A stretch of DNA of 16,408 bases from a virus (Duplodnaviria > Heunggongvirae > Uroviricota > Caudoviricetes), in IMG/VR virus record IMGVR_UViG_2617271072_000010, positions 1-16,408 of that record; one strand, 5' to 3'. This document shows, in pieces, positions 10,644 through 13,437 of this stretch (the stretch's first letter is position 1; the number at the start of each line of letters is the position of its first letter). A program made the translations under genes and the position numbers. A model generated the notes under the pieces. That model worked only from the letters and a program-made list of their open reading frames with translations, did not search any database and was not told where the DNA came from.

Positions 10644-10733
10644 ACAATATGTACCTCCGGTGTACATATTACATGATTGAAATGAACCTTCAAGATACTT
10701 GTACCTTAACGGTACAAGGGTTTTAATTTCGTT
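10644..10733. promoter_or_regulatory. Immunity-region operator/promoter segment with two palindromic operators and divergent promoters
   Basis: O1 ATATGTAC-N7-GTACATAT (10647-10669) and O2 CTTGTACC-N5-GGTACAAG (10698-10718), both perfect. Minus-strand promoter TTGAAG-N16-TAATAT (10688-10693, 10666-10671) overlaps O1. No Shine-Dalgarno before the repressor ATG. Confidence 0.5.
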
Positions 10734-11406
10734 ATGAAAACAATCCATGACATCCGGCGGTCTAACGCCAGAAAACTGAGAGATGGTGTTGGCGGGAATT
10801 CTTCCTTTGCCACTATGATTGATCGCGAGCCAACCCAGACCAGCAGGTTTATGGGAGATGGTGCTACTAAAAATATCGGTGACAGCATGGCACGACACAT
10901 CGAAAAATGTTTCGACCTGCCTGTCGGATGGCTCGATCAAGAACACCAGACAACGAACATCACAAAAAACCTGATGTTTCAATCACTAATAAACAAATCA
11001 CATTAGTCCCTGTCATATCATGGTACAGGCCGGAGCATGGAAAGAAGTTGGATATTCTGAGGTTGATTTGAGCACAGCAGAAACGTATCCCTGCCCTGTA
11101 CCCTGTGGGGAAATGACTTATATCTTGCGGGTGATAGGTGATTCAATGATTGATGAGTACCGCCCGGGAGACATGATTTTTGTCGATCCTGAAGTACCTG
11201 CCTGCCACGGTGACGACGTTATTGCATTGATGCACGATACAGGTGAAACCACCTTCAAAAGGTTGATAGAAGATGGGACACAGCGTTATCTCAAAGCGTT
11301 AAACCCAAACTGGCCTGAGCCTTACATTAAGATCAACGGTAATTGCTCTATAATTGGTACAGTGATTTTCTCAGGAAAACCAAGAAGATACAAAATCAAA
11401 GCCTAA
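10734..11406 (+). pseudogene. CI-like repressor (HTH domain plus S24 LexA-like peptidase domain) split over three frames
   Basis: 10734-11006 encodes the HTH domain (...IGDSMARHIEKCFDLPVGWLDQE...); 11020-11406 encodes the S24 domain (MVQAGAWKEV...RVIGDSM...TTFKRL). A third frame between them reads ...KQITLVPVISW. One extra A in the A6 run (10964-10969) and one extra base near 11021 would give an intact repressor of about 222 aa. Confidence 0.7.
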
Positions 11407-11445: not shown

Positions 11446-11478
11446 TTGACAATGTACCTTTGAGATACATAATGTACC
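11446..11478 (+). promoter_or_regulatory. pL-like promoter candidate with operator-like motifs
   Basis: TTGACA (11446-11451), 16-bp spacer, CATAAT (11468-11473). ATGTACC occurs twice and TACAT-a-ATGTA forms a palindrome (11466-11476), the same TGTAC core as the operators at 10647-10718. Confidence 0.35.
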
Positions 11479-11558
11479 CAAGCGAAACAACGAACAGGCA
11501 GGACGCCCACGAAGTAGCCGCCTGGGGCATATGAAGTCCAGGATGATTCGTTAGCAAC

Positions 11559-11580
11559 AAAAAAGCGCCCTATAGGACGC
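11559..11580 (-). terminator. Terminator-like hairpin downstream of the minus-strand membrane-protein gene
   Basis: Minus strand GCGTCC-TATA-GGGCGC (one G-U) followed by TTTTTT; 234 bp from the gene end, so the assignment is weak. Confidence 0.3.
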
Positions 11581-11813
11581 TTCGCTCTTTAACAATCTGG
11601 AGATCCCCAACACTTAACGGGATTTTGGCTTCGGTTCTGGCGGTGAAGGACGAGGTTTTAAGGGTATATGATCCTCTTTCCATGTATATATAAATGCATT
11701 CATTTGGTCATCTCAATATAGAATCCATTATTAATTCATACTCATAAAGCCTGTGTGACTTTGGTGATGGTGGTCTGGGCTTTGGAGGTACATGGTTAGG
11801 GATTATGGGAATT

Positions 11814-12293
11814 CTATTTGTCATTATTACACCTTTTTGACCGAGGCAAATCTCCAGCAAACCATGCGATAACGCTATGCATGAATGATATTTCTGACTC
11901 ATCAACACGTCCCAGCGCAATACAGGTCCGTTTGAACGCAGCATCTTGTAAAGATCTCCATGGATTACTATCAGCGTCTTGAACCTTTAAAAACCGAGTG
12001 CGTAGTTCGTCATCAGAAAGGGAGGAAAACTCAACAATCAACCTTTTATACTGTCGCATCTGTTCCTTTGATAAGCCAGCTTCCTGCCCAAATTGGTATA
12101 CCAATTGAAGCACCGACAAAATAGCTACAGATGCGCCAAAAATAAACATATTGCTATATGGCGCAAAAACAGAAAAGCCCAAGACAATGAGAACAAGAGT
12201 TATGCTCTTGTCTATCCGATTTAAAAGGGTGTAATTCATTTTCTCAAGAAAGAAAGAATAATGAATATCGAATGCTAGATCGTCTCGAGTCAT
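11814..12293 (-). CDS. Low-GC membrane protein (two predicted TM helices, soluble C-terminal domain), 159 aa; superinfection-exclusion-type moron candidate
   Basis: ATG at 12293 with RBS AAGGGA; hydrophobic segments ITLVLIVLGFSVFAPY and FIFGASVAILSVLQLVYQF; opposite strand to the surrounding operon, adjacent to the immunity region. No family recognised. Confidence 0.5.
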   Translation of the reverse strand: MTRDDLAFDIHYSFFLEKMNYTLLNRIDKSITLVLIVLGFSVFAPYSNMFIFGASVAILSVLQLVYQFGQEAGLSKEQMRQYKRLIVEFSSLSDDELRTRFLKVQDADSNPWRSLQDAAFKRTCIALGRVDESEISFMHSVIAWFAGDLPRSKRCNNDK

Positions 12294-12399
12294 CTCTATT
12301 CCCTTACATTTCAGGTTTCGGCTCAGGGATCGGTGCTGGTCTCTGATTTACCGGAACATGAAATTTTTCATTGCTATCTACGTACATATTTCCTTCCTA

Positions 12400-12449
12400 C
12401 CTGTTGTTGGGATATCCAGATTATACCGAATCCTTGTTGTTGGGGAATA
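12400..12449. repeat. Two direct repeats CC(T)TGTTGTTGGG(G)A about 32 bp apart in a non-coding stretch
   Basis: Copies at 12400-12414 and 12432-12449, read directly from the sequence; function unknown. Confidence 0.3.
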
Positions 12450-12673
12450 ACCAGGTCCACCTCGCCTGATGTGGCTAAAAGCAGGCACATAACAGCTAAG
12501 TATTTTCAACCAGAGAGAATCCTTAGCGTTGTGGTGAATGCGGCTCAGCGCACGCGGGTTAAGGTTGAGGCTGACAGTCGACCTTCTGTGGATACCCACC
12601 CGTCTGGTGTACAACCTTCGCCAGGCACCGGGAGGCACCCGGCACCACAACTTTATGCTGTGTGTTGTCTTGG

Positions 12674-12718
12674 CGGTACCAGCTTGTACCCTTGCTTCCG
12701 GCTGGTACCGTCCTTTTT
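12674..12718 (+). other. 10-bp perfect stem (CGGTACCAGC / GCTGGTACCG) with a 17-nt loop, followed by T5; possible 3' end of a plus-strand RNA
   Basis: Read directly from the sequence; lies inside the GC-rich 12300-12900 stretch where every overlapping ORF translates to low-complexity sequence. Confidence 0.3.
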
Positions 12719-12930
12719 ACAAAACAGAGAAGAGCATCATCGGACGACGGGCTCATAACCCAATCCATCCGGGCGGCTGCCACCACAGGTGTTCTTCTCT
12801 GTTTTGTGGAGAAACTAACCGCCCTACGGGGGCATTTATGGAAATGTAATTGACTCAATAATCGCCGGACGGTGAGGGCTTCCTTTTACCCGAATTCAGC
12901 GCGGTGCAGCGCATATACGTGGAGAACAAA

Positions 12931-13437
12931 ATGTCATTTATTAAAACTTTTTCCGGGAAGCATTTTTATTATGACAGGATAAATAAAGACGACATCGTTA
13001 TTAACGATATCGCGGTTTCCCTTTCAAATATCTGTCGCTTTGCAGGACATCTTTCACACTTCTACAGCGTCGCCCAACATGCGGTGCTTTGCAGCCAGCT
13101 GGTACCGCAGGAATTTGCTTTTGAAGCGTTAATGCATGATGCAACAGAAGCGTATTGCCAGGACATCCCGGCTCCACTGAAACGCCTTCTTCCTGACTAT
13201 AAACGGATGGAAGAAAAAATAGACGCCGTAATCCGTGAAAAATACGGGTTACCCCCGGTTATGAGCACGCCTGTGAAATATGCCGATCTCATCATGCTGG
13301 CAACCGAACGCCGCGATCTCGGGCTTGATGATGGCTCTTTCTGGCCTGTACTGGAAGGCATCCCGGCAACAGAGATGTTCAACGTGATTCCACTGGCACC
13401 GGGCCAGGCCTACGGGATGTTTATGGAACGTTTTTAA
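12931..13437 (+). CDS. HD-domain phosphohydrolase (YfdR-like), about 168 aa
   Basis: H...HD motif (RFAGHLSHFYSVAQHAVL...ALMHDATEAYCQDIP); start set at the ATG at 12931 (GGAG 7 nt upstream) rather than the ORF-track start at 12904. YfdR resemblance is from memory. Confidence 0.7.
   Translation: MSFIKTFSGKHFYYDRINKDDIVINDIAVSLSNICRFAGHLSHFYSVAQHAVLCSQLVPQEFAFEALMHDATEAYCQDIPAPLKRLLPDYKRMEEKIDAVIREKYGLPPVMSTPVKYADLIMLATERRDLGLDDGSFWPVLEGIPATEMFNVIPLAPGQAYGMFMERF

Follow-up and report, generated by a model that had tools for sequence, protein, structure and literature searches.

What is encoded in the roughly 600 bp that separate a small minus-strand gene from yfdR in a lambdoid prophage of E. 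coli, and what might it do there? The window, the whole stretch of 16,408 nucleotides that was analysed, is such a prophage, with the gene order cro-like (minus strand), cI-like S24 repressor (plus strand), small minus-strand moron, structured region, yfdR, three small ORFs and integrase. The region at 12294-12931 (638 bases) is covered over at least 80% of its length in 190 complete E. coli genomes, with identities of 99.4-99.8% among the matches listed for it. An earlier note, made from the sequence, had described a GC-rich and highly structured stretch, which it took for either a structured non-coding RNA or a heavily decayed gene. The composition is as described, GC being 0.54-0.55 at 12451-12900 and 0.38-0.45 in the flanks, and sequence inspection found all of the listed features, including the pairing of TTGTGGTG (12529-12536) with CACCACAA (12643-12650), which is of 8 bp, encloses 106 nt and extends to 9 bp (12528-12536/12643-12651), the CCGGG-AGGCA-CCCGG hairpin, and a perfect 10-bp stem (12674-12683/12701-12710) followed by TCC and then by T5. 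What did not hold is the treatment of the 600 bp as one object, because it comprises at least four modules, namely the promoter and repeats of the moron, an STnc100-like core, a terminator and a second conserved RNA element (Table 1).

Table 1. Features of the early-left region of the prophage, in positions of the window
Feature	Position	Strand	Basis or remark
pL-type early-left promoter	TTGACA 11446-11451, 16-nt spacer, CATAAT 11468-11473	+	promoter scan, 11/12 matches
Two operator copies overlapping pL	11451-11469, 11471-11489	+	repeat comparison
Hairpin, then boxA-like sequence	hairpin 11562-11583; GCTCTTTAACAA 11584-11595	+	identical to rrn-type boxA core
Moron ORF, 159 aa, no Pfam family	11814-12293	-	inserted into pL leader
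5' UTR and promoter side of moron	12294-12456	-	direct repeats located here
Direct repeats	CCTGTTGTTGGG 12400-12411; CCTTGTTGTTGGGG 12432-12445		sequence and repeat comparison
Conserved block CCACCTCGCCTGATGTGGCTAAAAGCAGGCACATAACA (37 nt)	12457-12493	+	start of sequence common to SfII
Structured core, STnc100/PasD family, class II	12527-12654	+	Rfam, R1 and covariation
P1	12528-12536 / 12643-12651	+	covariation
P2	12540-12542 / 12553-12555	+	covariation
Helix X	12556-12559 / 12598-12601	+	class II sequence solutions
Pseudoknot	AAGGTTG 12561-12567 / CAACCTT 12612-12618, in P4 loop	+	covariation
P4	12602-12609 / 12619-12626	+	covariation
P5, CCGGG-AGGCA-CCCGG	12628-12642	+	nearly invariant
Single-stranded linker TTTATGCTGTGTGTTGTCTT (20 nt)	12652-12671	+	relatives compared
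Intrinsic terminator T1: 12-bp stem (10 perfect), 17-nt loop, U5 12714-12718	12672-12718	+	sequence, folding
Module C, three-way-junction RNA	12719-12807	+	directly past T1
Rest of 5' UTR; ribosome-binding site GGAGAA 12921-12926	12808-12930	+	before yfdR ATG 12931

Non-coding status and fold of the core

The possibility of a degraded protein-coding gene could draw on the five overlapping ORFs of 63-141 aa that cover the region and on the RefSeq (PGAP) annotation, which has a frameshifted 'hypothetical protein' pseudogene at 12531-12850. However, the translations of these ORFs are of low complexity, and in a Pfam search none of the five had a match at E ≤ 0.1. Comparison of the window with ST64B reveals 1-nt indels inside the core and unrelated terminator segments, and close relatives show wholesale segment replacements that would break any reading frame. 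Variation tracks base pairing and not codon position, with compensatory substitutions in the helices. The chance that a decayed gene lies here is vanishingly small, and the RefSeq pseudogene is most plausibly the RNA itself, annotated by mistake as a gene. The identity of the region as a structured non-coding RNA is secure.

Compared with shuffled sequences, the folding energy gave z = -2.47 for 12520-12725 on the plus strand, -2.25 for 12715-12935 and -2.59 for the minus strand. Since the minus strand folds equally well, folding energy does not choose the strand, and since the z values are only modest (about -2.5), the case for a real structure rests on relatives. The RNA is on the plus strand, as follows from the G-U pairs in the helices, from the U-tract on the plus strand and from the promoters of relatives, which lie on the same strand.

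No tRNA or tmRNA was detected by ARAGORN in the window or in four relatives, which agrees with the earlier note as far as these RNAs are concerned; the core is, however, distantly related to the STnc100 family of Rfam. The Rfam covariance search, a check that the note had suggested, came back empty for the window at gathering thresholds, but in E-value mode STnc100 (RF02076) emerged as the only meaningful match, scoring 39.6 bits (E = 6.3e-7) where the gathering threshold is 47, with model positions 1-206 of 206 aligned at 12498-12721. The match is full-length with respect to the STnc100 consensus architecture, which consists of a closing helix, the P2 hairpin, the CCGGGAGGCACCCGG hairpin and a 3' terminator. 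Four relatives likewise give a sub-threshold STnc100 match in the syntenic place, with scores of 35-42 bits.

Viral contigs were then scanned for an invariant 19-mer, giving 141 copies, and a covariance model (R1) was built from 30 diverse copies, in which P1, P2, P4 and P5 were modelled and the pseudoknot was deliberately omitted. Searching with R1 returned 131 copies in 98 sources. The copy in the window matches model positions 1-118 of 118 with 62.5 bits (E = 2e-13), and it is the single R1 match in the 16.4 kb, on the pL side. The core therefore belongs to the STnc100/PasD family, and it is a divergent relative, without a promoter of its own, of the stand-alone prophage sRNAs STnc100 and PasD. 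In EDL933, 11 copies of STnc100 are transcribed, one of them verified by Northern blot (PMC5331693), and a 2026 preprint connects STnc100 with the Hfq-dependent sRNAs PasD1 and PasD2 of EPEC (10.64898/2026.05.13.724894; PMC8550237). Canonical STnc100 and PasD copies are expressed, Hfq-dependent and about 160-240 nt long (PMC5331693, PMC8550237, bioRxiv 10.64898/2026.05.13.724894). Stx2a_WGPS2 and phiNP carry module C and a P1 start, GTTGTGG, with no recognisable core (9.3 bits or no match to R1); the slot of the core is there taken by a different RNA.

The fold is backed by covariation, a comparison that the note had also proposed and that was counted over 98 distinct aligned sequences. Cells that are predicted to pair do so in 87.6% of cases, as against 76.0% in shuffles (reached by 0 of 500) and 38-51% after a shift of the partners by 1-3 columns, and 23 of the 29 pairs show double-sided changes. 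The pseudoknot, in which the strand that follows P2 pairs with the P4 loop, has compensatory changes, although it is absent from R1, in all six of its pairs and is paired in 82.7%. In an independent scan of one sequence after another, 46 different 5' strands came up, with the complement of each present in the P4 loop; in phiES15, for instance, AAGGCTG stands with CAGCCTT. For the class II copies (defined below), a per-sequence scan replaced a MAFFT alignment, which was set aside because the register of the pseudoknot shifts in it between subgroups. Five helices have covariation support when P4 is counted once and the pseudoknot is included, and P5 is nearly invariant; the loop and junction nucleotides (AAU, the P2 loop and the AGGCA loop) are invariant. 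A local hairpin (12561-12568/12578-12585) was considered as an alternative to the pseudoknot and rejected, as it occurs in the window and Pantoea types and not in the Buttiauxella or L013 types. We found no description of a covariation-supported pseudoknot in the STnc100/PasD literature searched.

Two classes of copies and the pL leader

Copies of the family are of two classes. Those of class I have a P2 of the form CCCC...GGGG, their own terminator and a sigma-70 promoter (TTGACA or TTGAAA, a 17/18-nt spacer, TAAATT or TACATT) whose fixed offset places the start at P1; strong promoter matches upstream of family copies stand at an identical offset in 16 of 21 cases. Class I copies are located either in the stretch from Q to the lysis genes or 75 nt past stx2B, and some form tandem arrays that repeat about every 255 nt; a tandem-array query against annotated phages gave no match. 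Class II, the type found in the window, has GCG...CGC at P2 and the extra helix X, and its members, which come from Escherichia, Shigella, Salmonella, Klebsiella, Cronobacter, Lelliottia, Buttiauxella and Pantoea, are always internal to a longer leader. In the promoter scan neither the window copy nor any other member of class II had an adjacent promoter upstream. Within the class the pseudoknot and P4 are kept through eight sequence solutions and helix X through about five, and in a Klebsiella copy P5 is changed with compensation, to GGUGG-AGGCA-CCACC. In the literature searched we found no description of a split of the family into stand-alone genes and promoter-less leader domains, nor of a link between the leader domain and lambdoid phages that have no N.

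In lambda, the early-left direction is that of pL, nutL and N. In the window, it is the plus strand that runs early-left, because of the gene order around the repressor and the integrase. The pL-type promoter of Table 1 lies just past the repressor's terminator, and its operator repeats match the palindromes of the cI-cro gap (10649-10716), in which the operator is present three times; this promoter (11446-11473) is likely the source of the transcript that contains the structured region. The start of the leader, AACAGGCAGGACGCCCAC, is common to the window, ST64B and phiNP, with homology over the first 60-70 nt of the pL transcript, and therefore the structured region sits in the pL leader, into which the minus-strand gene has been inserted. 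The slot bounded by the repressor and by the first gene towards the integrase holds the same RNA in ST64B, SfII, phiES15, PhiR29_2, Kp4866-6 and the environmental phage L013, and no N-like ORF is present in that slot in any of the six. SfII, SfV and SfIV are reported to be without N, cII and cIII (PMC3851460). We read the region as a non-coding leader that belongs to the early-left operon of a lambdoid prophage, one of SfV/SfII/e14-like type and without an N gene.

The insertion of the moron is bracketed by a 14-nt inverted repeat (11594-11607/12409-12422). A perfect TATAAT on the minus strand, at 12427 to 12422, is flanked by the two direct repeats of Table 1, and a Klebsiella relative (L006) has two other direct repeats arranged alike. 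The direct repeats that had been noticed at 12400-12449 are thus probably part of the promoter or regulatory region of the moron and lie outside the structured RNA. They had also been considered as pL operators, a candidate that was dropped because the real operators, at 11451-11489, match the cI-cro gap and go with a strong promoter; within 12294-12530 the scan found no consensus promoter. The block at 12457-12493 is near-identical in E. coli, Klebsiella and Cronobacter relatives and is missing from ST64B.

Close to the start of the leader, about 105 nt past pL, stands GCUCUUUAACAA (11584-11595), which is identical to the rrn boxA core. For comparison, the rrn leader 41-mer bearing TGCTCTTTAACAA occurs in about seven copies per E. 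coli genome. At 24 loci the boxA and the hairpin before it are conserved, in the same orientation as the core or module C and 800-1460 nt ahead of it; an exact boxA match is absent from ST64B, although ST64B has the core. Read on the minus strand, the hairpin at 11562-11583 is the terminator of the moron. Judged by its sequence, the boxA could shield the long untranslated leader from Rho.

It could also be that the core itself, with the boxA, is a cis-acting processivity or antitermination element that replaces N as the put RNA does in HK022, and that, either by modifying RNA polymerase or by recruiting host Nus factors, it lets pL transcription pass T1, module C and Rho-dependent sites in the long untranslated leader. 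The phage group is without N (PMC3851460), the core stands in the pL leader directly upstream of a strong terminator and a terminator-like stem, and the conserved boxA core matches the rrn type perfectly; class II copies, in addition, are always leader-internal, never have a promoter of their own and in some cases have no terminator, and RNA-only antitermination does exist in HK022 (PMC9378689). Nevertheless, no likeness in sequence or structure to putL or putR was found, HK022 has no STnc100 or R1 match, and there is one copy in the window where HK022 has one per early operon. The class I relatives, which have the same core, stop at their own terminators and yield discrete sRNAs, so that the core alone would not make polymerase terminator-resistant, and the exact boxA is lacking in ST64B, where the core is present. 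Put-like antitermination by the core is therefore unlikely, and less likely than the reading, set out below, of a leader with an attenuator.

Terminator, module C and the proposed working of the leader

Of 107 distinct contexts of the family, 88 have a terminator at most 150 nt past the core, and in 73 of them it starts within 40 nt. In the linker that leads to it, the motif TGCTGTGTGTAGTCTTGG is kept in five of six early-left relatives and UGCUGUGUGUAGUCUUGG in most of them, which makes the linker motif a candidate seed or cis signal. A complementarity of the linker to the cI mRNA (10948-10966) was rejected, since at 79% it is at chance level.

The proximity of the terminator would also be expected if the core were a riboswitch aptamer that controls T1 in response to a small molecule. 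A compact pseudoknotted fold with invariant loop and junction nucleotides, followed in most copies by an intrinsic terminator after 10-40 nt, is what such an element might look like. However, no conserved alternative pairing between core and terminator was seen by inspection: strand swaps of P2/P4 with the terminator can be drawn in the window and ST64B but not in phiES15 or most class I copies. Moreover, class I copies stand alone, often in tandem, with no regulated gene downstream, and some class II copies have no terminator at all, so that we give a riboswitch only a very small chance.

Module C, directly past T1, has an 18-bp outer stem (12719-12736/12790-12807), a variable hairpin and an inner arm with the invariant sequence CGACGGGCUCAUAACCCAAUCC, whose hairpin is GGG-CUCAUAA-CCC (12749-12761). 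Copies are present in more than 120 viral contigs, and their consensus structure is a three-way junction with six pairs that show compensatory changes. No Rfam family matches module C at E ≤ 10 except for a chance-level match to ar7, and we found no description of this unannotated element in the literature searched. The order of the modules varies, a module C-like element directly preceding the core in L027, L132 and L137. G/U-rich UGUGUG motifs were observed after the core and again after module C.

The 14-mer CGGGCTCATAACCC (12748-12761) in the inner arm equals the anticodon stem-loop of the initiator tRNA-fMet, the sequence of the tRNA having been verified. Module C variants with an 8-nt loop (GGGACUCAUAACCC) exist, and the mimicry is for this reason not strict. 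The resemblance to a tRNA may nevertheless be a theme of the whole leader, with the core as a tRNA-shaped mimic for a tRNA-handling factor (for example RNase P, which would cut 5' of P1 and so free the RNA from the long leader) or as a decoy for a tRNA-targeting enzyme, and with the copy of the anticodon arm in module C belonging to the same theme. In the model of the core, P1 (7-9 bp) and P5 (5 bp) are contiguous without a spacer, like acceptor and T stems, P2 is D-arm-like (3 nt between P1 and P2, a stem of 3-4 bp and a loop of 9-10 nt), and related leaders carry two T-arm-like hairpins. Since class I RNAs start at P1, an equivalent class II RNA would need a cut there. On the other hand, the likeness is geometric, the P5 loop has 5 nt (AGGCA) and not the seven of a T-loop, there is no CCA end, the 14-nt identity in module C does not extend to the 8-nt variants, and ARAGORN, as said, found nothing in the window or relatives. 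We regard a tRNA mimic as quite improbable.

The reading that we prefer, with a probability of roughly 0.6, is that, from the core in the pL leader, an STnc100-type sRNA would be released at T1, and that expression of yfdR and the integrase would be attenuated. After derepression, pL would transcribe about 1 kb, including the moron in antisense, and the core would then fold. Most of the pL transcripts would stop at T1 and give an STnc100-type RNA of about 190-230 nt if the 5' end is cut near P1; we infer this processing step, and an unprocessed pL transcript ending at T1 would have about 1.2 kb. A structured 5' domain, a linker and a terminator hairpin with a U-tail is the layout of Hfq-dependent sRNAs. 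T1 and module C would together form an attenuator, past which a fraction of transcription reaches yfdR and then the integrase, and the conserved core would act by binding a cellular partner rather than by base-pairing. Several observations weigh against the leader with an attenuator: transcription may reach the core inefficiently, since a convergent gene and about 1 kb in all separate it from pL, the STnc100 score of the window copy stays below the curated threshold of Rfam, and the class II copies of Lelliottia and Buttiauxella have a ribosome-binding site and an ATG directly after the core, without a terminator. Owing to these terminator-less copies, sRNA release cannot be the conserved role of class II, and their arrangement indicates that the domain acts in cis, as part of the mRNA leader.

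A broader proposal would join several of these elements. The STnc100/PasD core might be, instead of a scaffold for base-pairing, a tRNA-shaped, pseudoknotted ligand of a host machine (for example RNase P, some enzyme that targets tRNA, or RNA polymerase together with Nus factors), acting in trans as class I, whereas class II with boxA and module C would be an RNA-only replacement of N and nut in the early-left operon of the widespread N-less lambdoid phages of Enterobacterales. We hold this proposal, together with its list of candidate machines, to be distinctly unlikely.

Comparison with known systems

Among the prophage sRNAs of pathogenic E. coli and Salmonella, STnc100 and PasD rank with the most abundant, EDL933 having 11 copies; they depend on Hfq and belong to lambdoid prophages of Salmonella, EHEC and EPEC. 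The window copy shares with them the P1 closed by GGUGAAU...CACC, the P2 hairpin, P4, the CCGGG-AGGCA-CCCGG hairpin abutting P1, the pseudoknot, the succession of core, linker and terminator, and the location in a prophage. It differs in falling below the Rfam gathering threshold, in having GCG...CGC instead of CCCC...GGGG at P2, in the extra helix X, in the lack of the sigma-70 promoter that class I copies have at P1, and in its place in an early-left leader, whereas canonical copies are found past stx2B or in the interval from Q to the lysis genes. The core is more constrained than a typical sRNA, and the existence of a pseudoknotted core with invariant loops, together with a promoter-less version in the pL leader, suggests that the conserved part binds a cellular partner. 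The locus also offers a lead on how early-left functions, including excision, are controlled without an antiterminator protein in N-less phages. At the same time it exposes a gap in annotation, module C being without an Rfam match in spite of its presence in more than 120 viral contigs and a RefSeq pseudogene having been drawn across the RNA.

The putL and putR sites of HK022 are likewise structured RNAs past an early promoter of an N-less lambdoid phage and face terminators. The pL and pR regions of HK022 showed no similarity by reading, no Rfam STnc100 match and no R1 match with filters off, which rules out homology with put. A put RNA has about 70 nt and two stem-loops, and adjoins pL or lies about 270 nt past pR (PMC9378689), whereas the window has a single RNA of about 125 nt, which contains a pseudoknot and stands about 1 kb away from pL, and whose relatives end at their own terminators. 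With respect to the rrn leader and the nut sites of lambda, the pL leader has its boxA just after a hairpin, as in the boxB-boxA-boxC signal of rrn. The boxA of the window, however, lies outside the structured region, about 930 nt upstream of the core, there is neither an N gene nor a boxB match, and the hairpin before it doubles as the terminator of the moron.

The operator of thrS mimics the anticodon arm of tRNA-Thr. Module C resembles leaders of the thrS type in that it lies directly upstream of the first gene in most relatives and in that its hairpin, with three G-C pairs and a CUCAUAA loop, is the anticodon stem-loop of the initiator tRNA; it departs from them in those variants in which the loop has 8 nt.

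Variable content of the core slot

The interior of the STnc100/PasD-family core has been swapped for unrelated sequence in Stx2a_WGPS2 and phiNP, which lack the CCGGGAGGCACCCGG hairpin; the start of the closing helix P1 (GTTGTGG) is retained in both, as are linker, terminator and module C, the three-way-junction RNA that comes after the terminator. Since the replaced interior is unrelated and devoid of this hairpin, the same slot is occupied by a different RNA in these phages. Some relatives carry in addition a conserved extra block of ~350 nt upstream of the core, which the window does not have; it contains two T-arm-like hairpins, GTCTGGTTCGATTCCAGAC and GTCCGTTCGATTCGGAC, and an ARAGORN search of the block in relatives made no tRNA call. 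In the RefSeq/PGAP annotation, core, terminator and module C are all covered by one pseudogene, a 'hypothetical protein' marked as frameshifted, which is probably a spurious call over structured RNA.

Features in the window and in related sequences (L numbers)
Feature	Location	Remarks
cI-like repressor, split	window 10734-11406	ORFs 10734-11006 and 11020-11406, different frames
boxA-type CGCTCTTTAACAA	window 11583-11595 (+)	with hairpin 11562-11583
14-nt inverted repeat	window 11594-11607 and 12409-12422	93% complementary
'Hypothetical protein' pseudogene	window 12531-12850 (L001 13238-13557)	RefSeq/PGAP
tRNA-fMet anticodon stem-loop copy	window 12748-12761	in module C
Extra upstream block	L005 3700-3850; L006 3300-3445; L008 2690-2820	also L043, L248, L250
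Replaced core interior	L005 3855-3993; L008 about 2825-2960	
C4 antisense RNA and isrK	L003 (ST64B) 1409-1597; L005 (Stx2a_WGPS2) 1269-1457	antirepressor region
Class I STnc100-like tandem arrays	L029 371-992; L038 1724-2345 and 3212-3286; L076 4378-5463 and 8378-8519; L019 2322-3352	
Class II copy outside usual setting	L021 4452-4575	adjoins connector gene

Copies elsewhere and other phage RNAs

In some viral contigs, class I units (stand-alone, with their own promoter) form arrays of 3-5 tandem copies with a period of ~255 nt. One promoter-less class II copy, the type found in the window, lies beside a T7-type head-to-tail connector gene, outside any repressor-integrase interval, so that class II is not confined to pL leaders. 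Both C4 antisense RNA and isrK exceed the Rfam gathering score in ST64B and Stx2a_WGPS2, and neither is present in the window.

The pL leader and its repressor gene

About 105 nt downstream of pL lies CGCTCTTTAACAA, identical to the rrn-type boxA core and kept in the same orientation in 24 loci, which diverge past AATCTGG, where they carry different morons. It is a putative Nus-factor site that may shield the long untranslated leader. The minus-strand moron of the window, an insertion within the pL leader, is flanked on both sides by an inverted repeat, which could be a cassette boundary or a device looping the insert out of the RNA. The cI-like repressor gene is split either by a true frameshift or through an error in sequencing; in the near-identical prophage of strain MLI107, ymfK is intact as a single ORF of 224 aa.

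Module C and initiator tRNA

Over 14 nt, module C matches the E. coli initiator tRNA-fMet anticodon stem-loop exactly. This anticodon-arm motif is invariant in >120 viral contigs, some module C variants having a loop of 8 nt, and the copy has, as in the tRNA, the loop CUCAUAA on a stem of three G-C pairs.
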